A stretch of 64,000 nucleotides of DNA, from the NCBI GenBank assembly GCA_036005805.1, contig DASYQE010000086.1, positions 14,014 through 78,013 on the forward strand, given 5' to 3'. The position numbers were made by a program, and so were the translations under genes. Positions 30,441-64,000 of the stretch are shown here, piece after piece (positions within the stretch are counted from its first letter, which is position 1; every line of letters begins with the position of its first letter). The stretch is from Candidatus Polarisedimenticolia bacterium. Its GTDB lineage: Bacteria > Acidobacteriota > Polarisedimenticolia > Gp22-AA2. The notes beneath the pieces are model-generated. The model ran no database searches. It saw only the letters and a list, made by a program, of their open reading frames with translations, and had not been told where the DNA came from.

Positions 30441-32249
30441 CTAGGCGGCTTTTCCGGGACGCGGCGGCAGCTCGTCGGCGACGACGATGCGATCGCGTCC
30501 CGCCTGCTTCGCCGCGTACAGCGCCTTGTCGGCCCGCTCGAGCAGCACGTCGAGCGAGCCGTCCACGGTGTCCTGGGGGTAGCAGGCGATGCCGACGCTG
30601 ACGGTGGTCTGGACGACGGAGTCGCCGATCATCGTGCGCAGGCCGCCGATGCGCGCCTGCAGCCTCTCGGCGATGGAGCGGGCGCCGTCCCGGTCGGTCT
30701 CGGGGAGCAGCACGGCGAACTCCTCGCCGCCCCAGCGGCAGGGAATGTCGGCGGCCCGCATCGTGTCGCGCACCACCGCCCCGACCTTGTTCAGGTAGCG
30801 ATCCCCCGCGAGGTGGCCGAGCCGGTCGTTGATCTGCTTGAAGCGGTCGAGGTCCACCATCACCACGGCGAAGCCGCTGCCGTAGCGCAGGGCGCGCGCC
30901 TGCTCCTCCCGGAGCTTGCGGCGGAAGAAGTCGCGCAGGTAGAGATGCGTGAGCTGGTCCACGGTCGCGAGCTGGTAGTTGCGCGCGTTGTCGATCGCCA
31001 CCGCCGCCTGCTGCGCCACGGTGGTCAGCACCGAGACGTGCTCCACGCCGTAGGCGCCGATGCGCGGGCTCTGCACGCACAGCACGCCGATCGCCTCGTT
31101 GCCGTGCTCCACCGGCAGGGGCGCCGCGAGGATGGCGCGCACCTCGGGGTCGAGGACCACGGGCGCGCAGGGCAGCGAGTCCTTCTCCGCGTGCAGATCG
31201 GTGAGCATCAGCGGACGCCTCGCCTCGACCACCCAGTGGGTGAACCCTTCGCCGAGCGGCCGCTCCTGGCGCGGCTGCACGCGCCCGTCGCGCGCCACGA
31301 ACTCGACGTAGGTCTCGATCGCCCCGCGCTGCCGCAGCGACAGGATCAGGTACGGCGCGTCGAGGATGCGCGTCAGGTGGAAGGCGATGCGCGAAAAAAC
31401 CACCTGAGGGTCGAGGCTGCTGCTGATCTCCCGGCCGATGGTGTTGACGGTCTTCAGCTCGCGGGTGCGTGACTGCACCTGCTCGAGGGCGCGGCTCAGC
31501 TCGGTGCGGGCGCGCGTGAGCTTCTTGAGCAGCGCCGCGGCGAACAGGATGGTGCCCCCGAGCGGCGCGAAGCCGCCGACGCCGGAGGCCGCGTACAGCA
31601 GGGCCAGCCCGAGGGCCAGCGGGATGGCGTAGATCTCGAGCGTCGGCAGGAGGCGCAGGTAGTGCCCGATGTACGGGAAGACCGGCTCGCCCTTGAGGGC
31701 GACCGCGGTCACCATCACCGCGAGGTTGGCCAGGCTATAGGCGGCGTAGAGGGTCGCGATGGTGCCGACCGTGCCCCAGGTCGCCTCGTTCACCGGCCAC
31801 TCGGTCGCGAGCGTGCGCGCCGCCCACTGGCCCGCCCAGGCCGCCATCACCAGGCTGCCGGTGTTGAGCGCCGCCCCGGCCCAGTACGAGTGGCGAGTGC
31901 ACTCGGGGTCGAGGCGCCGCAGCAGCGCCCCGGCGATGCCGCCGATCAGGGCCACCGCCAGCGGCAGCGGCGGCGGCAGGACGGCGAGCGCCGTCAGCAT
32001 GTAGGTCATGTCGAGCGAGATCGACAGCGTGGCGCGCGGGAAGAGCGAGAACGAGAAGAACCACGACAGGGCGATGAACAGGCCGAAGCAGGTGAGCGGC
32101 ATCACCGAGGCGGCGAGCAGGTGCCGCGCCGGGATGAGAAAAGGCAAAGAGACGCCGATCGCCGCGACGCTCAGCGCGATCGCGAAGATCGTGAAGCGCC
32201 GTTCCCCCGGGTCCAGAAACGGCACACCCTTTCCCGCGGCTCGTCCCAT
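30441..32249 (-). CDS. Diguanylate cyclase: a multi-TM N-terminal sensor region, a GAF-like domain and a C-terminal GGDEF domain (GGEEF).
   Basis: A GGDEF domain with the RWGGEEF motif. The start is moved to the internal ATG (MGRAAGKGVPFLDPGE...) because the listed first 61 codons are Arg-rich and would overlap the divergent promoter and small ORF. Confidence 0.8.
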   Translation of the reverse strand: MGRAAGKGVPFLDPGERRFTIFAIALSVAAIGVSLPFLIPARHLLAASVMPLTCFGLFIALSWFFSFSLFPRATLSISLDMTYMLTALAVLPPPLPLAVALIGGIAGALLRRLDPECTRHSYWAGAALNTGSLVMAAWAGQWAARTLATEWPVNEATWGTVGTIATLYAAYSLANLAVMVTAVALKGEPVFPYIGHYLRLLPTLEIYAIPLALGLALLYAASGVGGFAPLGGTILFAAALLKKLTRARTELSRALEQVQSRTRELKTVNTIGREISSSLDPQVVFSRIAFHLTRILDAPYLILSLRQRGAIETYVEFVARDGRVQPRQERPLGEGFTHWVVEARRPLMLTDLHAEKDSLPCAPVVLDPEVRAILAAPLPVEHGNEAIGVLCVQSPRIGAYGVEHVSVLTTVAQQAAVAIDNARNYQLATVDQLTHLYLRDFFRRKLREEQARALRYGSGFAVVMVDLDRFKQINDRLGHLAGDRYLNKVGAVVRDTMRAADIPCRWGGEEFAVLLPETDRDGARSIAERLQARIGGLRTMIGDSVVQTTVSVGIACYPQDTVDGSLDVLLERADKALYAAKQAGRDRIVVADELPPRPGKAA

Positions 32250-55994: not shown

Positions 55995-58181
55995 CTAGGC
56001 GCTCGAGCCGCGCCTCCCGAAGGCGGCGATCGACGGGGGACCGCTGCGGGCCGCGGCGGCGGGACGCCGCGGCGCGTCGGGAGCGTACGCCGCGTTGAGA
56101 TAGGCCATCTCGGGCGTGTACGAGGAGACCTCCGCACGGACGTCGTTCAGCACGATGCCGCGGATGGTGGCGCGCACCGTGTCGAGGTGCACCTTGGCGC
56201 GCTTCAGCGCCGCGCGGCTGATCCGCCCGAGCTGGTAGACCAGCACCACGCCGTCCACGCGCGTCGACAGGATGGCCGCGTCGGTCACCGGCAGCACCGG
56301 CGGCGCGTCGATCAGGATGACGTCGAAGCGCGAGGCCACTTCCACCACGAAGTCGTTGAACAGCGGCGACGACAGCAGCTCCGAGGGGTTCGGCGGCAGC
56401 GCCCCGGCGGTGAGCACGTGCAGGTTCTCGAGCCCGGCGGAGGTCTGCAGCGCCTTCATGTCGATGCGCCCGAGGAAGACGTCCGAGAAGCGGTGCAGCA
56501 CGTCGTCGAGCCGCGCCATGCCGAGCACGACGTGGGTGAACCCCGGCTCGCGCGCCACGCCGAACATGCGGTTGAGCGTCGGACTCCGGAGATCGCAGTC
56601 CCACACGAGGGTCCGCATCCCCATCTGCGCCATCGCCACGCCGAGGTTGGCGACCGTGGTGGATTTCCCCTCGCCGGGCGAAGCGGAGGTGAACAGGAAC
56701 GTCCGTCCCGCCTTGCCGAGCCGCGAGAACTCCAGGTTGGTCCGCAGCGACCGGAAGGCCTCCGCCACCGGCGACTGCGGCGCGAACTGGGTGACGAGGC
56801 TGGTGAAGCCCTCGAGCCCGGGGTCGGAGGCCAGCGCCGGCTGGCGCTGCACGATGTCCTTGCGCAGGCTGTCGCCGTCCATGTGCGGCACGACGCCGAT
56901 GACCGACAGCCCCAGGTACTGCTCGACGTCCTCGATGCTGCCGATGGAGGTGTCGAGGCTCTCGACGGCGAACGCCGCGACCAGACCGAGCAGCAGCCCG
57001 ACCACGAGGCCGACGAGGGACCGCAGCAGCCGCCCCGGAGCGTGGCGCGCCTCGGCGCGCGTCGCGGTCTCGACGACCGACAGCTCGGTCACCTTGTCCG
57101 CCTCGCGGATGAGCGCCTCCTGGCGCTTGCGGCTGAGCATCTCGTACGCCTCGGCGTTCACCTGCACCTCGCGCTGCAGCTGCAGCAGGCGCTGCTCGGT
57201 GCGCGGGAAGCGGGACAGCTTGTCGTCGAGGAGGGTCTTGCGCGCGTTCGCCAGGTCGAGGGCGGAGCGCGCCTCGCGGCGCAGCCGGTCGTAGAGGCGG
57301 GTGATCTGATCGCCGACCTTCGCCACCTCGGGCGCGTCCGATTTCATGAAGGCCTCGAGCTGGTGGCGGCGGTCCTGGAGCTTGAGGATCTCCTGGCGCA
57401 GCGACTCGAGACCGTCCTCCTGGAGATCGACGAGGAGGAGATCCGGGCTGCCGTCGTCGCCTCCCGCCGACAGGCTCTGCAGCAGGGTCTGGAGCGCGAC
57501 GATGCGCGCCTCGCTCTTGCCCGCCTCGTCCTGGAAGAACTGCACCTCCTTCGCGTCGGGGTTCTTCGCGCCGACGTTCTGCTCCTTGAAGGCGGCGAGC
57601 CGCTCCTCCGCCTCGGAGAGCCGCCGCCCGACCTCGTCCACCTGCGTCTCGACGAACTGGCGTGCGTCGATGGCCTGGCGGTTGCGCTCGAGGGTGTGCA
57701 GGGTGATGTACTCCTGCATGACGGCATTGGCGATGGCGACCGCCTCGTCGGGCGAGCCGCAGGCGGAGCGGATCTCGATGAGGCTGGTGTTCTCGATCGG
57801 CCGCGCCGTGTAGGAGGCGATCACCCCGTCGAGCCGCGCCGACAGCACGCGGTCGGCGAGGACCTCGGGCAGGGCGACGCCGGGATCGATGCGGCCGAGC
57901 CGCTGTGCCGCCTGCAGCGCCACCGGCTTGCTGGCGATGATCTGCGCCTGGGTCGCGAGGTCGTCCCCCGGGCTCCACGAGAAGGTCTCGAGGAACAGTC
58001 CCGCGACGTTGTCGGTGCGGGTCCACTTGACCCGCGCCGCCGCCTCGTAGCTGGTCTGCGCCCGCGGGGTCAGCAGGAGCGTCAGCAGACCCATGAGGAG
58101 GCAGCACCCGGCCACGACGCGCGCGCGCCGCCTCAGGATGCGCAGGTAGTCCTGCAGGTTCAGGTTGTCGCCGGCGCTCAC
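55995..58181 (-). CDS. wzc: Polysaccharide co-polymerase / tyrosine autokinase (Wzc/GumC-like). It has an N-terminal Wzz-type periplasmic coiled-coil domain between two TM helices and a C-terminal CpsD/BY-kinase P-loop ATPase.
   Basis: A 728-aa ORF. Walker A is SASPGEGKSTT, Walker A' is VLIDAPP, and the chain-length-determinant N-terminus is present. Confidence 0.88.
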   Translation of the reverse strand: MSAGDNLNLQDYLRILRRRARVVAGCCLLMGLLTLLLTPRAQTSYEAAARVKWTRTDNVAGLFLETFSWSPGDDLATQAQIIASKPVALQAAQRLGRIDPGVALPEVLADRVLSARLDGVIASYTARPIENTSLIEIRSACGSPDEAVAIANAVMQEYITLHTLERNRQAIDARQFVETQVDEVGRRLSEAEERLAAFKEQNVGAKNPDAKEVQFFQDEAGKSEARIVALQTLLQSLSAGGDDGSPDLLLVDLQEDGLESLRQEILKLQDRRHQLEAFMKSDAPEVAKVGDQITRLYDRLRREARSALDLANARKTLLDDKLSRFPRTEQRLLQLQREVQVNAEAYEMLSRKRQEALIREADKVTELSVVETATRAEARHAPGRLLRSLVGLVVGLLLGLVAAFAVESLDTSIGSIEDVEQYLGLSVIGVVPHMDGDSLRKDIVQRQPALASDPGLEGFTSLVTQFAPQSPVAEAFRSLRTNLEFSRLGKAGRTFLFTSASPGEGKSTTVANLGVAMAQMGMRTLVWDCDLRSPTLNRMFGVAREPGFTHVVLGMARLDDVLHRFSDVFLGRIDMKALQTSAGLENLHVLTAGALPPNPSELLSSPLFNDFVVEVASRFDVILIDAPPVLPVTDAAILSTRVDGVVLVYQLGRISRAALKRAKVHLDTVRATIRGIVLNDVRAEVSSYTPEMAYLNAAYAPDAPRRPAAAARSGPPSIAAFGRRGSSA

Positions 58182-58182
58182 G

Positions 58183-59610
58183 TCAGTCCCCGTTCTTGAA
58201 GTCGTCGATGATGTAGAGCGATTCGATGGTGTCGAGAGCCGGCGCGATGATCGAGAAGACGTCGTGCAGGTGCGCCAGGAAGCCCTTCGAGACGTAGATG
58301 ATGTCGCCGGGCTCGAGCTCGAAGTCGTCCTTCAGGTCCCCGGTCTTGAACAGCTCCTTGAGGTTCGCCGCCTTGAGATCCGGCTTGCCGTCGGCGCGCC
58401 GCTTGATGAGGACGACCTCCTTCGGGTTCGAGCGCAGGCTGAGGCCCCCGGCGCGCGCGATCGCCTCGATCAGCGTCATGCGGTCGAAGATGGTCACGAC
58501 CCCCGGCTGGTTGACCTCGCCCAGGACGTACACCTTGCGCATCCCCATCTGCAGCGACGGCAGGAAGACGAAGTCGCCGTCCTCGAGGGCCGGGTTGTCC
58601 GCGTCGCTGTGGTGGAACACCGCCTTGAAGAGGTTGACGTCCTGCTGGGTCCCGTCGCGCTTGACGATCTGCACGCGCATCAGGTCGGCCTCCGGCGAGG
58701 GGCCGCCGTGCTCCGCCAGGAACGACACCAGGCGGGTCGGACCCTCGAGCGCCCAGTCGCCGGGGCCGCTGTCGGTGCGCGCCGTCGTCTTCACCTCGCC
58801 CATGAGGTGAACCCGGTGGCCCGCGTAACGCAGGACCAGGAGCTCCGTGTAGATTTCCTTGTAGATGCGCGAGAGACGCCCTTCGATGTCCTTCTTGGCG
58901 TCGATGGCGGTCTTGCCGCCGACGGCGATCGACCCGAGCCCGAGGATCGGCAGGAAGGCGGTGCCGTCGCTCTGCACGGTGAGCTGCTGCTCGTCGATCT
59001 TCTCGCCGTCCCAGATGCGCAGGGACAGGACGTCGCCGGGGGCGAAGCGGTAGTCGGGAGCCGGGGCGAAGGTGGTCACCGCCTGCGCGAACGGGCCGAC
59101 GGCGGCGCGCGCCTCGGCGGTGGCGGCGCCCCCGAGCAGGGCCAGCGTGGCGAGGACGGCGGCCCGGCGCAGCAGGCGCGGGCGGCGCCGGCGGATGGCC
59201 AGGCGGAACAGGGCGCGGCGGCGCGCGGCGGCGGAATCGTCGATGGGCAGGGTGCGCCCCTCGCGGAGGACCGCCACCACGCGGCCGAGCAGCTCCTCGC
59301 GCCGGCAGCCGGCGTCGAGGCCCGGCTCGTTGTCCCCCTGCGTGCGGTAGAGGCGTCGCCCGTCCTCCAGGACCACGGTGACCAGGCGGTGCGCGACGAT
59401 CCCCGCGGCGTCGCGGCGCACCAGGATCTCGCCGGGGCGGGGGAGACCGAGACAGGGGGCGACGACGATCCGGTCGCCCGGGACGAGCGTCGGCCGCATG
59501 CTGTCGCCGCGCACCGGCAGCGACACGTCGAGGCCGCCCTGCAGGAGCGCCTCGAGGACCGGTTCGGTCTCGAGCGCGCCGGGCGCCTCGGGCCGCGGCG
59601 ATCCCGGCAT
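58183..59610 (-). CDS. Unusual single-ORF fusion: an N-terminal S24/S26 (LexA/signal-peptidase-like) peptidase domain, then a signal-anchor/TM segment, then a C-terminal Wza-type polysaccharide export domain (Poly_export plus SLBB).
   Basis: It shares a reading frame with the listed 58183..60384 ORF. ATG at 59610 (MPGSPRPEAPG...). The S24-like motifs are VRGDSMRPTLVPGDRIVV, GEILVRRDAAGIVAHRLV and YRTQGDNEPGLD. A signal-like segment RRRRPRLLRRAAVLATLALLGGAATAEA follows. The Wza motifs are PDYRFAPGDVLSLRIW and the tandem SLBB-like region. No canonical start exists for a separate wza. Confidence 0.7.
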   Translation of the reverse strand: MPGSPRPEAPGALETEPVLEALLQGGLDVSLPVRGDSMRPTLVPGDRIVVAPCLGLPRPGEILVRRDAAGIVAHRLVTVVLEDGRRLYRTQGDNEPGLDAGCRREELLGRVVAVLREGRTLPIDDSAAARRRALFRLAIRRRRPRLLRRAAVLATLALLGGAATAEARAAVGPFAQAVTTFAPAPDYRFAPGDVLSLRIWDGEKIDEQQLTVQSDGTAFLPILGLGSIAVGGKTAIDAKKDIEGRLSRIYKEIYTELLVLRYAGHRVHLMGEVKTTARTDSGPGDWALEGPTRLVSFLAEHGGPSPEADLMRVQIVKRDGTQQDVNLFKAVFHHSDADNPALEDGDFVFLPSLQMGMRKVYVLGEVNQPGVVTIFDRMTLIEAIARAGGLSLRSNPKEVVLIKRRADGKPDLKAANLKELFKTGDLKDDFELEPGDIIYVSKGFLAHLHDVFSIIAPALDTIESLYIIDDFKNGD

Positions 59611-59636
59611 GGCTTCGCGATCCAGGCGCGCGGCGC

Positions 59637-61829
59637 TCACGATCGCTCCGTGGGTGTGACGCGGTGGCGGATGTGCAGGAACGGCGCGCGCGCCAGGTCG
59701 ACGAAGCGGCGCTCGGCGCCGACGGCGCCGGAGGCGATCTCGACGCGCGGGCGGAAGTGGTTTTCCTCGTTCTGGGTGACGACGCGGGCCACGTCGCCGC
59801 TCGACAGCTCCACGAGGCAGCCGATCGGGTAGATCGGCACGGCACGCAAAAGCGCCCGGAACAGCAGCGGGCTGAAGCGCTGACCGTGCTGCGCCATCAC
59901 CAGCGACGTCACGTCGTGCAGGTCGAGCCCGCGCTCCCGTCCGCCCTGCTGCAGGCGCTCGGCGAGTGACGCGAGGGCGACCGCCTGGATGCGGAGGTCG
60001 GCGCGGCTGCGTTCGGTCGCCGGGGCGCCCGGGTCGAGCAGGGCGCGCACCTCGTCGATGCGTCCGCGCATCTCCGCTCCTCCCACGCCCAGCCGCTCGA
60101 GCGTGGCGGGAGCGAGCTCCGCGTCGTGCACCAGCGCCAGCAGCGCCGTGGCGGGGCCGTCCTCCCCGGCGCCGAGGCCCGCTGCAAGCCCGCCGGCGAT
60201 GAGGGCGCAGTTGATGGCGTGGCGGGCCGCGTCGCTGGCGCGCGACGAGGCGATGAGGAGCGACGGCAGCGCGGCCTGCGGCGCTTCGGGTCGCTGCGCT
60301 CCCGGGGCGGAGCGCCCCGCGAGGGTGCGCGCGAGATCGGACAGCTCCCGGCCCCGGTTCGTTCCCTGCGCCGCGTCGCGCCACAGCGCGTCGAGCCGCA
60401 GGGCTTCCTCCTCGGTCGGGACCGCGGCCGCGGCGGCGGCCGCTTCCGAGGCGGGCCCTTCGGCGCGCGGCTCGAGGACGGCCGCCACGATGGGCGGGCG
60501 GACGCCGCGCGGTGCGCCCGCGAGGGCGGACACTTCGCGCAGCGATCGCATCGAGCCGGCATCCCCGGGAAGGACCAGGACATCCTCGAACAGCACGTTC
60601 CCGTCCATGACCCGCCGCCAGCCTTCTTCACGCAGGGTCGGCAGGCCGCGATCGAGGCCGTCGAGGCCGGACCAGGCGAAGACACCGGTGACACCCTCGG
60701 CGCCGGTCCGGGCGCAGGCGTCGCAGCCGGCGCCGCGCGGCACGGCGAGGCCGCCGCGTCTTTCGATGTCCTCCATGTCGCGGCGGTGGAAGCCCAGGCG
60801 CAGCGCCCGCTCGGGCGAGAGCGTCGTGGTCGTCCGGCAGGCGCGGCACACGGTGCGGACGAGCCCCTGCGACAGGACCGCCACCGGCACGCCGGGGAGT
60901 GCCGCCGACTCGAACAGGCTGCGCACCCGGCGCGCGCTGGCTTCCGGCTCTCCCGGCGGCAGGCCCGCGAGCACCAGCGCTCCGCCGGCGGCGAGCCGGG
61001 CGGCGAGCGCGGCATCGCGTCCGTCATGAAGCGTTTCGATCAGCACGAAATCGGGGGCCACGGCGCGCAGGCTTTCCGGGAAAGGCCAGTCGGAGAGCCG
61101 CTCGCCGAGCCACGGCAGCGGCCCGGCGGCGCGGGCGCCGATGCGGCCGCCGCGCCGGCCGCCCGCGACCAGGAGCTCCGCCATACGGTCGAGCGTCAGG
61201 GTGCATCCTGACGCGGACCCGGCGGCTACGCCGACGAAGCCCGACGGGCGGTCGAGCGCTTCGGCGACCACTTCGAGCAGCGACGCCGAGAAGCCGAGAT
61301 CGGGCAGCTCGCGGGGTGCTTCGCCGACCGTCCCGGCGATGCGCAGCCGGAACTCGTGGGGCCGCGGTCCGGGCCGGACCGACAGCAGCAGCCGTGCCGC
61401 CCGCTGCGCCCCGGCGAGAGGCACGACGCCCCGGGGGGCGCAGCGGAACAGGGCCGCCATCAGGCCCAGCGCGTCGCGCGGCGCCACCGGGAACGGATGC
61501 TTCTGGCCGTCGGAGCCGATGAGGATTCCCTTCACCCCGTCGCGCCCGCGCAGCAGCACCATCTCGTCGTACTCGCCGTGCAGCAGGCGGGAGAGCGCGG
61601 GCGCGAGCAGGTCGGGGCGCGGAATCGCCTGCGGCCACGAGTCCGGATCGTCCGGCGGGTGCAGCTCCGCCGCGCGCACCTCGTCCTCGGTGGCGGGCAG
61701 GACCACGATCGCCGTGCCGTCCGGCAGCCGGCGTGGCAGCGGGGCGCCGCCGAGGCCGCGCGGCGCCGCGACGAAGACGACCCCCTGGCGCTCCGCCAGC
61801 AGGACGACTTCGGGAGGTCTCTCGCTCAA
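59637..61829 (-). CDS. GspE/PilB-family (type II secretion/T4P ATPase-like) pseudo-ATPase. It has an N2-like domain, a degenerate Walker A, a conserved tetracysteine Zn motif (CRAC...CDAC) and a C-terminal degenerate HD-like domain.
   Basis: TTG start at 61829, preceded by the RBS ggggagg. GspE-like motifs are PDFVLIETLHDGRDAALAARLAAGGALVLAGL (compare the family motif pattern IxVGEIRDxETAxxAxxAAxTGHLV), VGVAAGSASGCTLTL (degenerate P-loop with no Lys), RTVCRACR...GCDACARTG and GVTGVFAWSGLD. The C-terminus has HAINCALIAGGLAAGLG...LVHD but no HHE/GYP. Confidence 0.65.
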   Translation of the reverse strand: MSERPPEVVLLAERQGVVFVAAPRGLGGAPLPRRLPDGTAIVVLPATEDEVRAAELHPPDDPDSWPQAIPRPDLLAPALSRLLHGEYDEMVLLRGRDGVKGILIGSDGQKHPFPVAPRDALGLMAALFRCAPRGVVPLAGAQRAARLLLSVRPGPRPHEFRLRIAGTVGEAPRELPDLGFSASLLEVVAEALDRPSGFVGVAAGSASGCTLTLDRMAELLVAGGRRGGRIGARAAGPLPWLGERLSDWPFPESLRAVAPDFVLIETLHDGRDAALAARLAAGGALVLAGLPPGEPEASARRVRSLFESAALPGVPVAVLSQGLVRTVCRACRTTTTLSPERALRLGFHRRDMEDIERRGGLAVPRGAGCDACARTGAEGVTGVFAWSGLDGLDRGLPTLREEGWRRVMDGNVLFEDVLVLPGDAGSMRSLREVSALAGAPRGVRPPIVAAVLEPRAEGPASEAAAAAAAVPTEEEALRLDALWRDAAQGTNRGRELSDLARTLAGRSAPGAQRPEAPQAALPSLLIASSRASDAARHAINCALIAGGLAAGLGAGEDGPATALLALVHDAELAPATLERLGVGGAEMRGRIDEVRALLDPGAPATERSRADLRIQAVALASLAERLQQGGRERGLDLHDVTSLVMAQHGQRFSPLLFRALLRAVPIYPIGCLVELSSGDVARVVTQNEENHFRPRVEIASGAVGAERRFVDLARAPFLHIRHRVTPTERS

Positions 61830-62869
61830 GACGCCTCCCCGGTGTCCGCGGCCGGGCCGCCGAGCGAGGCCAGCACGCAGTCGACCGCCGAGGCATCGGG
61901 GAGAAACTGCAGGCGTCGCACCGGCACCTGCTCGGCGAGATGCGACAGGAAGCGGACCGCGAACTCCAGGCCCTCGCGCTCCCACAGGGCCGGGAAGGCG
62001 CGCACCATCATCTGCGCCACCGCCGCCGAGGGCGGCAGATCGATCACCCGGTTGCGCGGGGCCTGTTCGAGGATGAAGACCGCGTCGAGCGGCGCCGAGC
62101 CGGGCGACTCGATCCCGGCCTCGCCGTGCCACGGGGTGCCGTAGATGCGCGGACCCGCCGCGTCGGCGCGGATCACGATGCGATCGTCCGACAGGAGGGT
62201 CGTGGCGGGGCGTCCGGACCACAGGCGCGCCGAGGTGCTCTTGCCGGAGCCGCTCGTGCCGAGCAGCAGGATGCCGCGGCCGCGGTGCACGAGGCCGCAC
62301 GCGTGCACCAGCACGCCGCGCCCGCGCGCCAGGCGCGCCAGGAAGACCACCTCATCGAACGGGTAGACGAACGGGTGCATGGTGTCGCCGGCCAGGTGCG
62401 GACCGCCGTCCACCGTCTCGCCGTGTCCCACCGCGTAGTCGTGGTCGAACTCCACCGCGAGATAGGGATTGTGGCCGTAGATCGGCGAGCGCAGCGTCAG
62501 GAGATGCCCGGCGTGCGTCTCCTCGAGACGCCACACCGAGCCGGTGTCGAACACCGTGCGCGCCGCCTTCTTCGGCGGCCGCGGCGACGGCAAGGGCGCG
62601 AGCACGACCGAGGCGCAGTCGAGACCGGCGTCGCGCGACAGGAACGGCTCGTGGGCCGCGTCGGTGACGAGACGGATCCCGGGCTCGGCCGGCGTCACCT
62701 CGAGTCCGAGGCCGGCGATCTGCAGAACCAGCGGGCCCGACGCGTCAGGAGCCACTGTGCGAGCAGAGCGCCGGGGTGCCGGTGCACTTCTCGGACGCGC
62801 CGAGAGGTCCCTGGGTGGTGACTGTCTTGCACGAGGCGAGGACCGCCTCGTCGGGCACCAGGTGGACAC
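61826..62869 (-). CDS. HprK-related P-loop kinase (HPr kinase/phosphorylase C-terminal-domain-like). The start is uncertain: the first 38 listed codons are Ser/Pro/Arg-rich, and an internal GTG near 62755 is an alternative.
   Basis: A P-loop LLLGTSGSGKSTSARL followed by LSDDRIVI, the arrangement diagnostic of the HprK C-terminal kinase fold. The stop overlaps the TTG of the downstream gene. Confidence 0.68.
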   Translation of the reverse strand: MSTWCPTRRSSPRARQSPPRDLSARPRSAPAPRRSARTVAPDASGPLVLQIAGLGLEVTPAEPGIRLVTDAAHEPFLSRDAGLDCASVVLAPLPSPRPPKKAARTVFDTGSVWRLEETHAGHLLTLRSPIYGHNPYLAVEFDHDYAVGHGETVDGGPHLAGDTMHPFVYPFDEVVFLARLARGRGVLVHACGLVHRGRGILLLGTSGSGKSTSARLWSGRPATTLLSDDRIVIRADAAGPRIYGTPWHGEAGIESPGSAPLDAVFILEQAPRNRVIDLPPSAAVAQMMVRAFPALWEREGLEFAVRFLSHLAEQVPVRRLQFLPDASAVDCVLASLGGPAADTGEAS

Positions 62870-62929
62870 GGGTCAGGCGCGGCGGCTGGTAGGCGCGGCG
62901 CGACGAAGGATCGGACGGCTTCCTCGGGA

Positions 62930-64000
62930 TCATCGGGCGGTCTCCGCAGGGGACGGGCGTTCGATGCTGAGCAGGTTCGGGGACTGGGAGGCGGACGGAC
63001 GAGCCGTCTTGCTGCAGCCGGTGGCGCACCCTCCGGCGGCGCACGCCGTACCGGCGCCGGACGGAGCGGGCCGCCGGCTGGCACGGGGCAGGGTCACGCC
63101 CTCGGGCGTCCAGCCGGAGGCGACCTTGTCGGCGTGCGCGAGAAAGCGCGCCGCCCGGGCCGGGTCGCCCGCTTCTCCTTCGAGGAGCGCGGCACGCCGG
63201 TGCGTCAGCTCGCAGAAGTGGGGGATCCACCCGTCGGGGCTGCCGGTCTCCAGGATCGCCGTCGCGGGACAGCGATCGCACAGGGATTTGAGCTCGCAGC
63301 GGACGCAGACGTTCTCCGGGGCGGCGGGGCGCTCGCGCACGGCGCCGACAACCCCGTTCCAGCCTTCGAGGAAGGAGCCGTTGCGCAGATCGTAGCCGTC
63401 CAGCGGCAGCGCCTCGCACGACCACAGCCAGCCGCGCGGATCCACGTGGAACGACTGCAGTCCGGCGCCGCACGAAAGCAGCCGGTCGGTCTTCGGCGTG
63501 GTCCGGACGAACCGGTCGTAGAACCGCTGCCAGTGCGCGCGGCGCTCCGGATCGGCCGCGTCGAGCCCGACGATGTCCGAGGGTGTGGCCCGCGCCGCGA
63601 CCGGCTGCATCGAGCCGTCGAGGCGACCGTGGATGGTGCCGTCGTAGCGGAAGGGCAGCCCGAGCGAGTCGGCCCAGGCGCGCATGGTCGGCAGCTCTTC
63701 GACCAGCCCCTGCATGGCGACCGCCTTGAGCGTCAGCTTCACCCGCCGGGCGTGCAGCCGCTCCACGGCCTCCCGCACCCGGCGGAAGCGCCCCGGCATG
63801 CCGGTCGTCCGCAAGTAGGTGTCGTCCGACATCCCGTAGAGGGTGATCTCGACGCCGAGGGGCGGGTACTCCGCGAACAGGTCGGCGATGCGATCGTCGA
63901 GGAGCGTGCCGTTGGTGAAGACGGTCAGGAGCATGCCGCGCCCCTTGGCGTGGCGGTAGATCTCCGGGAAATCCGCGCGGCTCAGGACCTCGCCGCCGGT
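62930..64000 (-). CDS. Radical SAM / SPASM-domain protein (C-terminal two-thirds). The N-terminus with the CxxxCxxC motif lies beyond the right edge of the window.
   Basis: The reading frame continues open to 64000 (…GGEVLSRADFPEIYRHAKGRGMLLTVFTNGTLL, the core rSAM motif). The SPASM cysteines are SCGAGLQSFHVDPRGWLWSCEALPLD and CVRCELKSLCDRCP. The listed ORF 62930..63934 merely starts at the first internal Met. Confidence 0.8.
   Translation of the reverse strand, partial: TGGEVLSRADFPEIYRHAKGRGMLLTVFTNGTLLDDRIADLFAEYPPLGVEITLYGMSDDTYLRTTGMPGRFRRVREAVERLHARRVKLTLKAVAMQGLVEELPTMRAWADSLGLPFRYDGTIHGRLDGSMQPVAARATPSDIVGLDAADPERRAHWQRFYDRFVRTTPKTDRLLSCGAGLQSFHVDPRGWLWSCEALPLDGYDLRNGSFLEGWNGVVGAVRERPAAPENVCVRCELKSLCDRCPATAILETGSPDGWIPHFCELTHRRAALLEGEAGDPARAARFLAHADKVASGWTPEGVTLPRASRRPAPSGAGTACAAGGCATGCSKTARPSASQSPNLLSIERPSPAETAR

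Follow-up and report, generated by a model that had tools for sequence, protein, structure and literature searches.

A gene on the minus strand of the window (the whole 64,000-nucleotide stretch of DNA that we analysed, from a Candidatus Polarisedimenticolia bacterium) encodes a 730-amino-acid protein which descends from the fusion of a GspE/PilB-type ATPase (N2 and ATPase domains, with the tetracysteine), an HD-GYP domain and an SH3-like beta domain. Our alignments show that both the GspE-like and the HD-GYP-like parts have lost most of their catalytic motifs, in agreement with the doubly degenerate fusion that the original prediction had proposed. We estimate at roughly 55% the probability that this protein acts as a non-catalytic regulator or adaptor of Wzx/Wzy-dependent exopolysaccharide (EPS) assembly or export (Wza-Wzc-Wzy-Wzx). 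The gene, the parts of its product and its closest neighbours are the following:

59637 to 61829, minus strand: whole gene, 730 aa plus stop (ORF call and orthologue alignment)
61620 to 61829, minus strand: N-terminal extension (aa 1-70) made of three strands plus one short helix (AF2 secondary structure)
61320 to 61619, minus strand: N2-like domain of GspE/PilB-type ATPases, aa ~71-170 (Foldseek matches to PilF/PilB/GspE and secondary structure)
60495 to 61319, minus strand: ATPase-like C-terminal domain (T2SSE fold), aa ~171-445, catalytically degenerate (Pfam, profile, Foldseek)
61194 to 61232, minus strand: degenerate Walker A, GVAAGSASGCTLT, aa 200-212 (PDB profile and family alignment)
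61032 to 61058, minus strand: Walker-B-like APDFVLIET, aa 258-266 (alignment)
60714 to 60848, minus strand: tetracysteine CxxC...CxxC zinc motif, C328, C331, C369 and C372 (alignment)
59835 to 60419, minus strand: degenerate HD-GYP-type helical domain, aa ~471-665 (alignment, fold search)
59655 to 59834, minus strand: C-terminal five-stranded SH3/Tudor/KOW-like beta domain, aa ~666-725 (alignment, model, fold search)
58183 to 59640, minus strand: Wza-like OPX exporter (Poly_export and SLBB) with a weak N-terminal Peptidase_S24-like segment, downstream partner
55995 to 58181, minus strand: Wzc-like PCP/tyrosine autokinase, downstream partner
61826 to 62755, minus strand: ScmC/HprK-related P-loop protein with an intact GTSGSGKST, upstream, start approximate

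The gene begins with a TTG codon at position 61829, which has a GGAGG 5 nt upstream and overlaps the TGA of the ScmC/HprK-like gene (TTGA), and at the other end its stop codon and the GTG with which the Wza-like gene starts overlap. A longer ORF of 887 aa was rejected as a high-GC artefact because the orthologues begin at the position of the 730-aa start. The alignment contained 69 full-length orthologues, mostly from Acidobacteriota/Polarisedimenticolia MAGs (all members of the family come from uncultured MAGs), and 58 of its columns are invariant. The 730-aa reading frame of the window gene is intact, and comparison with an 89%-identical orthologue yielded a dN/dS ratio of 0.22 overall and of 0.10–0.32 for the individual folded domains. 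Such values, around 0.2, reveal purifying selection on this conserved gene.

The first half of the protein has the N2 and RecA-like C-terminal domain fold of the T2SSE family. Pfam T2SSE matched it with 28–29 bits (gathering threshold 24.9), covering only aa 258–384; the family profile retrieved PilF, GspE and PilB from the PDB with E-values ranging from 8e-23 (PilF) to 1e-10 over aa ~170–434; and Foldseek aligned the AF2 model (pLDDT 88) with PilF, PilB and GspE, at E 2.7e-19 for PilF (5oiu) and over ~390 aligned columns. The GspE/PilB-family pseudo-ATPase core originally proposed is thus borne out, also by a structural comparison of the kind that had been suggested as a check. The Walker A position reads GVAAGSASGCTLT, with GSASGCTLT as core and Cys209 in the place of the Lys. 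The absence of this Lys, predicted from the window sequence, extends to all 69 full-length family sequences, which have Arg (64), Cys (3), Ile (1) or Leu (1) instead; the codon is TGC (Cys) in the window and CGC (Arg) in orthologues of 88–89% identity. An intact Walker A elsewhere would have made the protein a normal ATPase, but K100 and K110 are its only lysines and neither G....GK[ST] nor GK[ST] occurs anywhere in the 730 aa, so that none exists. In place of the Asp box (TIEDPVEY in PilF) there is RGRRGGRIG, a loop rich in Arg and Gly and specific to the family; the His box (GHLVIATLHTND in PilF) is replaced by GALVLAGLPPGE, given also as LVLAGAPAAD. In the Walker B region the acidic D260 and E265 are kept (DFVLIE), the Gly of hhhhGE is missing and the catalytic context is gone. 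The four cysteines C328, C331, C369 and C372, described as an intact tetracysteine in the original prediction, are invariant in the 69 sequences. The GxxGxFE-like C-terminal strand reported with them stands only in part: the family consensus keeps the Glu, whereas the window protein reads GAEGVTGVFAW and has lost it. The conserved P-loop Arg and Walker-B acids hint at a phosphate-bearing ligand in most members, something that a pure scaffold model leaves unexplained. Neither the operon of the window nor 13 related loci contain genes for the GspF/PilC or GspL/PilM platform proteins. Genome matches at 24–28% identity were considered as possible stand-alone pseudo-GspE relatives and rejected: 18 of the 19 inspected have a canonical GPTGSGK[TS] (the remaining one, L040, gave no pattern match), and these low-identity matches are therefore ordinary PilB/GspE proteins.

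The C-terminal half adopts the HD superfamily fold with the C-terminal helices specific to HD-GYP domains (defined by PROSITE PS51832 as summarised in 10.1101/2021.11.05.467447). HD_5 gave no match among 23 family members at E<=0.1, and a PDB sequence-profile search with this domain gave YfbR alone (E 0.3, in the H...HD region), which made a fold search necessary. The window protein keeps the first His (H537) and the HD dipeptide (H568-D569), which are found in 62, 62 and 55 of the 69 family sequences, respectively, and are lost in some members (e.g., P0009 and P0067). The second metal site is missing, as predicted: HHE, GYP, the third His and the final Asp are all gone. Where ordinary HD-GYP proteins show QEHERxDGSGYPxGL, corresponding to the HHExh(D/N)GxGYP motif, the window protein reads EVRALLDPGAPATER and the family VHxLL...P...ER. 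Alignment with true HD-GYP proteins also showed that the third-His region is deleted or replaced and that GLAD has become ALAS and HDVGK has become HDAEL, the segment following HD being HDAGL or HDAEL, without Lys, across the window's family. EVRALLDPGAP occupies the GYP position of the window protein; another segment, QHGQRFSP, was discarded as a GYP remnant, as its counterpart in true HD-GYP proteins is NHGDDFDRRIF, in the C-terminal helices that follow GYP. The HD-GYP domain has lost most metal ligands and the GYP loop in this Acidobacteriota family. The window copy has in addition a ~28-aa deletion 3' of the HD motif relative to most orthologues, and the VH remnant has turned into VR, with loss of the His; together with R209C, these changes make it the most degenerate member of the family. 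Judging from the residues left, hydrolysis of c-di-GMP by the window protein would be impossible.

The N-terminal extension (aa 1–70) has no Pfam or NCBIfam matches and is specific to the window's family, being missing from the deeper fusions described below. We rejected its interpretation as a degenerate REC domain, as members with a separate upstream REC gene still carry it, and as a degenerate MshEN, as it is predicted to be beta-rich and does not match the motif. Conservation within the family is highest in the terminal beta domain (FPVGSxVxLSxGxxARVV...RPxVE), which is the same as that present in thousands of ordinary HD-GYP proteins.

A rarer and deeper clade of GspE-like/HD-GYP fusions combines the same Arg P-loop with a near-intact HD-GYP domain. 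A word-indexed profile search recovered at least nine of them, full or partial (P0091 included). The deeper fusions keep QVHERxSGxG[F/E/S/G]PDGL and GLAD and score 39–89 bits on HD_5; those of L009, L010, L012 and L091 were set outside the window's family on the basis of a drop in bit score and of their HD_5 matches. Every GspE-like/HD-GYP fusion examined has already exchanged the Walker A Lys for Arg and lacks both the Asp box and the His box; the window copy has in addition lost this Arg (R209C). Since the HD-GYP domain of the deeper relatives is near-canonical and their genes stand first in Wza-Wzc operons of the same kind, an ancestral link with c-di-GMP signalling is well grounded.

The Wza-like and Wzc-like genes follow the fusion gene directly, which places it inside an EPS export locus, and the expected association of the orthologues with wza/wzc was also found: the fusion gene lies directly 5' of Wza-Wzc-Wzy-Wzx in nearly all loci. 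On the other side, the ScmC/HprK-related gene closes a RiPP-like cassette (NTP_transf_5, PqqD, radical SAM/SPASM, a 62-aa Cys peptide and ScmC/HprK-like). The family loci with enough flanking sequence have the radical SAM, peptide and ScmC genes upstream and Wza, Wzc and Wzy downstream, with the exception of L031, a divergent member (38% identity) with REC alone upstream, without cassette and without Wza/Wzc nearby; the export link is therefore not obligatory. The flanking leuS, lptE, holA, guaA and dnaE genes are syntenic among family loci as well, so that shared ancestry within a single lineage accounts for much of the synteny seen in the family. Within the deep clade, the fusions of L009, L010, L012 and L091 are directly 5' of Wza-Wzc-Wzy-Wzx with no RiPP-like cassette adjacent (at L091, none within 10 kb upstream), and that of L011 has NTP_transf_5 and PqqD immediately 3', which keeps the cassette neighbourhood in a different gene order. 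Of the 16 species-representative family loci with their upstream flank preserved (L013–L030 minus L017 and L024), 9 encode a single-domain response regulator (REC) immediately 5' of the fusion; REC is present also at L003, L011, L012 and L031. Roughly half of the family loci have this gene inserted between ScmC and the fusion; the window has none.

As a regulator or adaptor of EPS export, the window protein could not power anything by ATP hydrolysis. It would act by binding proteins on the cytoplasmic side of the export machinery, the Wzc kinase domain or Wzx/Wzy being the most plausible partners; surface conservation is highest in the zinc subdomain, the DWPFPE and REEGWR motifs and the terminal beta domain. 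The fusion of many relatives probably relays the state of the adjacent single-domain response regulator and, in the deep clade, probably c-di-GMP levels as well. Catalytically inactive HD-GYP proteins that regulate by protein-protein interaction offer a precedent (10.1101/2021.11.05.467447).

This reading has to be weighed against several others. The accumulated changes of the window copy (R209C, the deletion and VH to VR) are what one would expect of a decaying, functionless relic, but the intact frame, the low dN/dS (<0.33 in each folded domain), the 58 invariant columns, the confident AF2 models and the start and stop overlapping the neighbouring genes make such a decay very improbable. An active NTPase or phosphohydrolase with a non-canonical catalytic site might exploit the Walker-B-like D260 and E265 and the H...HD kept in the window copy; we find it hardly credible, as Walker A Lys, Asp box and His box are all missing and H...HD is the sole surviving HD-GYP metal-ligand motif, with the VH-remnant His also gone in the window. 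The protein might instead work with the RiPP-like cassette that lies upstream, perhaps assisting the modified peptide as a chaperone or in its export as an adaptor, the EPS link being secondary. The overlap of its start with the ScmC-like stop, the upstream cassette in all family loci with enough flank other than L031 and the NTP_transf_5 and PqqD genes immediately downstream of the L011 fusion agree with this idea. However, the fusions of L009, L010, L012 and L091 precede Wza-Wzc with no cassette adjacent, about half of the family loci have REC separating ScmC from the fusion, and L031 has neither cassette nor EPS genes, all of which makes a primary role in the cassette rather improbable.

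The original prediction was that of a nucleotide-second-messenger sensor, and a receptor for c-di-GMP or another such messenger, gating polysaccharide polymerisation or export through a ligand bound by the degenerate HD-GYP pocket, by the Arg-type P-loop or by the two together, is conceivable but doubtful. The helical domain is of HD-GYP ancestry, with near-intact motifs in the deeper fusions, and the Arg that takes the place of the Walker A Lys in all deep fusions and in 64 of 69 family sequences, with the Walker-B acids kept, fits binding without hydrolysis; the RGRRGGRIG loop in place of the Asp box and a GAF-GGDEF cyclase encoded in the genome point in the same direction. The idea that degenerate domains of these types can be c-di-GMP receptors does hold for HD-GYP: DvhD of Desulfovibrio vulgaris, a dead, metal-free HD-GYP protein, is a structurally solved, high-affinity c-di-GMP receptor controlling adhesin release, which holds the ligand by residues including R650, Y652 and K582 (PMC13090378). 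The window's family, however, lacks the GYP loop and reads HDAGL/HDAEL. From their numbering, R650, Y652 and K582 presumably lie in the GYP loop and at the position of the Lys after HD. The analogy with MshE-type receptors fails, as these bind c-di-GMP via the N-terminal MshEN of an active ATPase and not via a dead P-loop. No MshEN motif, RLGxx(L/V/I)(L/V/I)xxG(L/V/I)(L/V/I)xxxxLxxxLxxQ, was detected in the window protein with strict or loose regular expressions, T2SSE_N had no match among 23 family members at E<=0.1, and PilZ was found neither by regular expression in the window protein (RxxxR ... (D/N)xSxxG) nor by Pfam. Moreover, H and HD are gone in some members (P0009 and P0067) and Cys replaces the P-loop Arg in the window copy. 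The GGDEF gene that had been invoked (30441–32249) is real, with 150 bits, but at 27 kb from the fusion gene it is no evidence of linkage and is unrelated to the operon. The part of the sensor claim that stands is the ancestral c-di-GMP link; sensing by the window copy itself is disfavoured because the known binding residues appear to be lost.

More tentatively, the regulator or adaptor reading may be extended to the fusions as a whole, which might represent a previously unrecognised class of cytoplasmic gatekeepers for Wzx/Wzy polysaccharide export. A ring-forming pseudo-ATPase derived from type II secretion/type IV pilus machines would dock on Wzc/Wzx/Wzy and convert a signal into the opening or closing of polymerisation and export, the Arg-type P-loop serving as a non-hydrolysing ligand sensor. 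The deep clade would respond to c-di-GMP, many members to the phosphorylation of a response regulator, and those of Acidobacteriota possibly to the product of the adjacent RiPP-like cassette.

Post-translational control of Wzx/Wzy-type export is known mainly via Wzc tyrosine phosphorylation; the systems with established dedicated c-di-GMP receptors, by contrast, are of the synthase type, such as those for cellulose, alginate, Pel and PNAG. That a conserved, dead GspE-like/HD-GYP protein is encoded right before Wza-Wzc in two clades which diverged deeply suggests that this pathway has a regulatory subunit not recognised so far, in which a secretion-ATPase fold is re-used as a pseudo-enzyme. The GspE-like/HD-GYP architecture is absent from the text of the HD-GYP domain census, the architecture table of which is an unsearchable image (10.1101/2021.11.05.467447), and it was not found in literature searches on GspE and HD-domain pseudo-ATPases, HprK/PqqD/rSAM cassettes with EPS, and HD-GYP with Wza/Wzc.

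Compared with GspE/PilB/PilF (T2SSE, PF00437), the window family shares the N2 and ATPase fold, the tetracysteine zinc subdomain, a Walker-B-like hhhhE and a REEGW-type C-terminal helix, but it lacks the Walker A Lys, the Asp and His boxes and MshEN/T2SSE_N, and the window protein is fused to an HD-GYP-type domain and has Wza/Wzc, not GspF/PilC/GspL, as partners. With HD-GYP phosphodiesterases (PmGH 4MCW, PA4781 and Bd1817) it has in common the first His and the HD dipeptide, whereas it has neither HHExh(D/N)GxGYP nor the third His, the final Asp or the Lys that follows HDxG. The genetic pairing with REC in many loci recalls a split version of the RpfG-family REC-HD-GYP regulators, which include inactive members (10.1101/2021.11.05.467447); in contrast to them, REC is a separate gene in the related loci, it is absent in the window, and the N-terminus is a GspE-like module. 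DvhD has followed the opposite path to that of the window's family, having lost the HD and HH motifs where the latter has kept H...HD and lost the GYP loop and the post-HD Lys; it is, in addition, a dCache-PAS transmembrane receptor and not a GspE-like fusion. PelD, LapD and FimX are degenerate c-di-GMP-domain receptors gating polysaccharide or adhesin secretion. They have GGDEF or EAL folds and demonstrated ligand binding, whereas the window protein joins HD-GYP and GspE-like modules in a Wzx/Wzy-Wza-Wzc pathway; the concept is nevertheless alike, namely a dead signalling enzyme domain as regulatory module beside a secretion machine.

The gene for the GspE-like/HD-GYP-like fusion has the coordinates given in the original prediction (59637-61829), as a minus-strand ORF running from 61829 to 59637 and encoding 730 aa. 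The TTG start codon shares bases with the TGA that ends the upstream gene (TTGA) and is preceded, 5 bases away, by a GGAGG; at the other end, the stop codon overlaps the GTG with which the downstream Wza-like gene begins. A longer frame of 887 aa was discarded as a high-GC artefact (the window has ~72% G+C) because 69 orthologues start at the equivalent position. The other features considered are:

Window 61203-61205, minus strand: codon 209 of the fusion gene, equivalent to the Walker A Lys; TGC (Cys) versus CGC (Arg) in loci L005 and L013, 88-89% identical
Window 58183-59640, minus strand: Wza-like OPX exporter with an extra N-terminal segment weakly similar to Peptidase_S24/signal peptidase I
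Window 61826-64000, minus strand: RiPP-like maturation cassette, in one operon with the Wzx/Wzy EPS locus
Window 62745-62933, minus strand: conserved 62-64-aa ORF between the radical SAM/SPASM and ScmC/HprK-like genes
L001:8906-9094, L004:3261-3452, L005:8894-9079, L006:8851-9039, L007:224-412 and L008:8814-9002: the same ORF in related loci
L031:2449-4752: diverged member of the family (38% identity) from an Acidobacteriota MAG, flanked by a response regulator (REC) gene on one side and by unrelated genes, for amidohydrolase and cytochrome, on the other

The Pfam T2SSE model covered only aa 258-384 of the window fusion, at 28-29 bits (gathering score 24.9), and the NCBIfam GspE and PilB models also weakly matched this stretch. 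The profile of the family (Acidobacteriota orthologues, 69 aligned at full length) matched solved PilF, GspE/EpsE and PilB chains over aa ~170-434 (E 8e-23 to 1e-10), and an AlphaFold2 model predicted from an input of 69 sequences (mean pLDDT 88.4) superposed on PilF, PilB and GspE over ~390 columns spanning both the N2 and ATPase domains (Foldseek E 2.7e-19 to 1e-16). The dead P-loop noticed earlier extends to the whole family, the Walker A Lys being absent in 69/69 full-length members (Arg in 64, Cys in 3, Ile in 1, Leu in 1), and no intact Walker A lies elsewhere, as the window fusion has just two lysines in all and GK[ST] occurs nowhere in it. In a residue-level alignment with PilF, whose Walker A is GPTGSGKS, the window fusion reads GSASGCTL and the family GGPxSGRST; a conserved RGRRGGRIG takes the place of the Asp box and LVLAGAPAAD that of the His box, and the acidic Walker B residues D260 and E265 are still present. 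The tetracysteine is indeed intact, with all four zinc cysteines invariant in the 69 aligned sequences. Codon 209, a P-loop position otherwise kept as Arg by nearly the whole family (64/69), owes its TGC to a recent single C-to-T transition in the window copy.

The window sequence alone did not reach Pfam HD, which was reached by 13 of 23 relatives (best E 8e-7); 10 of the 23 touched HDOD. A search of 1.84 billion representatives with a profile spanning the entire C-terminal module gave 6117 proteins at E<=1e-3. Of the best 150, most aligned over almost all of the module, and a Pfam scan of ten matches included 5 non-fusions, all ordinary HD-GYP (HD_5) proteins. Therefore, the helical domain and the beta barrel form a common HD-GYP module. 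Using motif definitions from the HD-GYP domain census, we recovered in an alignment to HD-GYP proteins the predicted HD dipeptide (H568-D569) and the first His (H537), whereas the third His is missing because a ~28-aa stretch has been deleted in the subclade of the window. In place of the ordinary HHE/GYP segment (QEHERxDGSGYPxGL) the window fusion has EVRALLDPGAPATER, GLAD has become ALAS with loss of the Asp, and there is no Lys after HDxG. On sequence grounds, we infer that this protein cannot be a conventional ATPase or c-di-GMP phosphodiesterase. Against an 89%-identical orthologue, dN/dS was 0.22 overall and low by region (N2 0.10, ATPase-like 0.27, HD-GYP-like 0.16, beta barrel 0.22), so the degenerate domains are maintained and not decaying.

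A word-indexed search yielded 79 relatives, all metagenomic and either unnamed or labelled hypothetical protein. Carriers among GTDB species representatives were ~20 MAGs, mostly labelled Acidobacteriota or Candidatus Polarisedimenticolia, and all family members come from uncultured MAGs. The closest genomic matches, L013 (DASRAU010000014.1), L022, L025 and L027, belong to SMAG assemblies that their submitters labelled, for example, Verrucomicrobiia, Cryosericum, Binatia and Dongiaceae; they are syntenic with Acidobacteriota/Polarisedimenticolia-labelled loci and share 88–96% (L013) or 45–77% (the other three) protein identity with them, and their labels look unreliable. The representative search also retrieved rarer, far more distant proteins (P0091, P0093, P0096, P0097 and P0102; 672-748 aa) built from the same three parts; close relatives of P0091 are annotated by JGI as HD-GYP domain-containing proteins. 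This deep clade, as recovered from the 150 top-ranking representatives and a single word-indexed search, scores 39-89 bits with HD_5 and retains QVHERxSGxG(F/E/S/G)PDGL and GLAD, with Arg already at the Walker A Lys position and the Asp and His boxes absent. Such a combination of an Arg P-loop with a near-intact HD-GYP argues that P-loop loss preceded HD-GYP erosion: a GspE-like pseudo-ATPase with a largely intact HD-GYP appears to have come first, followed by erosion of the HD-GYP site in the Acidobacteriota family.

Every family locus with enough flank showed the upstream order NTP_transf_5, PqqD, radical SAM/SPASM, 62-64-aa peptide, ScmC/HprK-like, fusion, and the downstream order fusion, Wza-like, Wzc-like, Wzy_C, Wzx, glycosyltransferases. 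Much of this synteny is shared ancestry, because the leuS, lptE, holA, guaA and dnaE flanks are syntenic too; the deep clade is the informative comparison. In its loci L009, L010, L012 and L091 the fusion is followed by FG-GAP-Wza, Wzc, Wzy_C and Wzx, either directly or, in some cases, after a single small ORF. The N-terminal FG-GAP repeats of this Wza homologue stand in place of the extra segment of the window exporter, which spans aa 22-83, scores 19 bits and also resembles SipW in NCBIfam. The sole synteny exception among the loci examined is L031, where Wza/Wzc and the cassette are absent around the fusion. Among the 16 species-representative family loci retaining upstream flank, 9 (L014, L015, L018, L019, L021, L025, L026, L028 and L029) have a single-domain response regulator gene immediately before the fusion. 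The same holds for L003/L004, the deep-clade loci L011 and L012, and L031, but not for the window or for L005 and L013, which are closest to it. In L091 a divergent hybrid histidine kinase is encoded upstream. The family may have its most faithful partner in REC.

Within the window, the cassette encodes the small peptide, an ScmC/HprK-related P-loop protein whose GTSGSGKST is intact, and a radical SAM/SPASM protein whose gene runs past the window end, with PqqD and NTP_transf_5 added further upstream in orthologous loci; its combination with EPS genes is kept in family loci with enough flank (not L031). The peptide, without any Pfam match, has the consensus Y.PP.L.RV.LVPDEAVLASCK..T.GP.G...KC...P..C with 3 invariant Cys, and looks like a RiPP precursor for the adjacent PqqD and rSAM/SPASM (plus NTP_transf_5 and HprK-like) cassette. 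The fusion protein might serve this cassette, an explanation favoured by the short deep-clade contig L011, which has the cassette as a neighbour in another order (REC, fusion, NTP_transf_5, PqqD). However, this explanation is weakened by L009, L010, L012 and L091, where no cassette adjoins the fusion.

On the best-supported reading, the fusion would regulate the Wza-Wzc-Wzy-Wzx machine, or serve it as an adaptor, without any catalysis of its own. In this role it would rely on protein contacts with the export machine and would be coupled to the response regulator in many relatives and to c-di-GMP in deep-clade fusions; what we say of its oligomeric state, ligand and partners, we infer. The original prediction of a second-messenger sensor was a reasonable extrapolation from the HD-GYP ancestry of the C-terminal part and from DvhD, a dead HD-GYP protein that binds c-di-GMP through residues including R650, Y652 and K582 (PMC13090378). 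For the window copy it is nevertheless unlikely, since its P-loop lacks even the Arg of the family and neither an MshEN nor a PilZ motif occurs in the protein. The GYP loop and the Lys after the HD position, where we presume the three DvhD residues to lie, are missing as well. The GGDEF gene invoked in its support (window 30441-32249, minus strand) does encode a GAF-GGDEF protein (GGDEF 150 bits) but is unlinked to the EPS operon. Within the regulator or adaptor reading, a pure scaffold does not explain the conserved Arg P-loop and the Walker B acids retained in most members, and these features leave open a role for a ligand that is bound but not hydrolysed.

Regulation of secretion by dead signalling domains is already a familiar theme. 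In the literature searched we found no description of a GspE-like and HD-GYP-like fusion, and the running text of the HD-GYP domain census mentions neither GspE nor T2SSE (10.1101/2021.11.05.467447). The theme gains a new form here in a GspE-fold pseudo-ATPase fused to HD-GYP, whose gene immediately precedes Wza-Wzc in operons of the Wzx/Wzy type.
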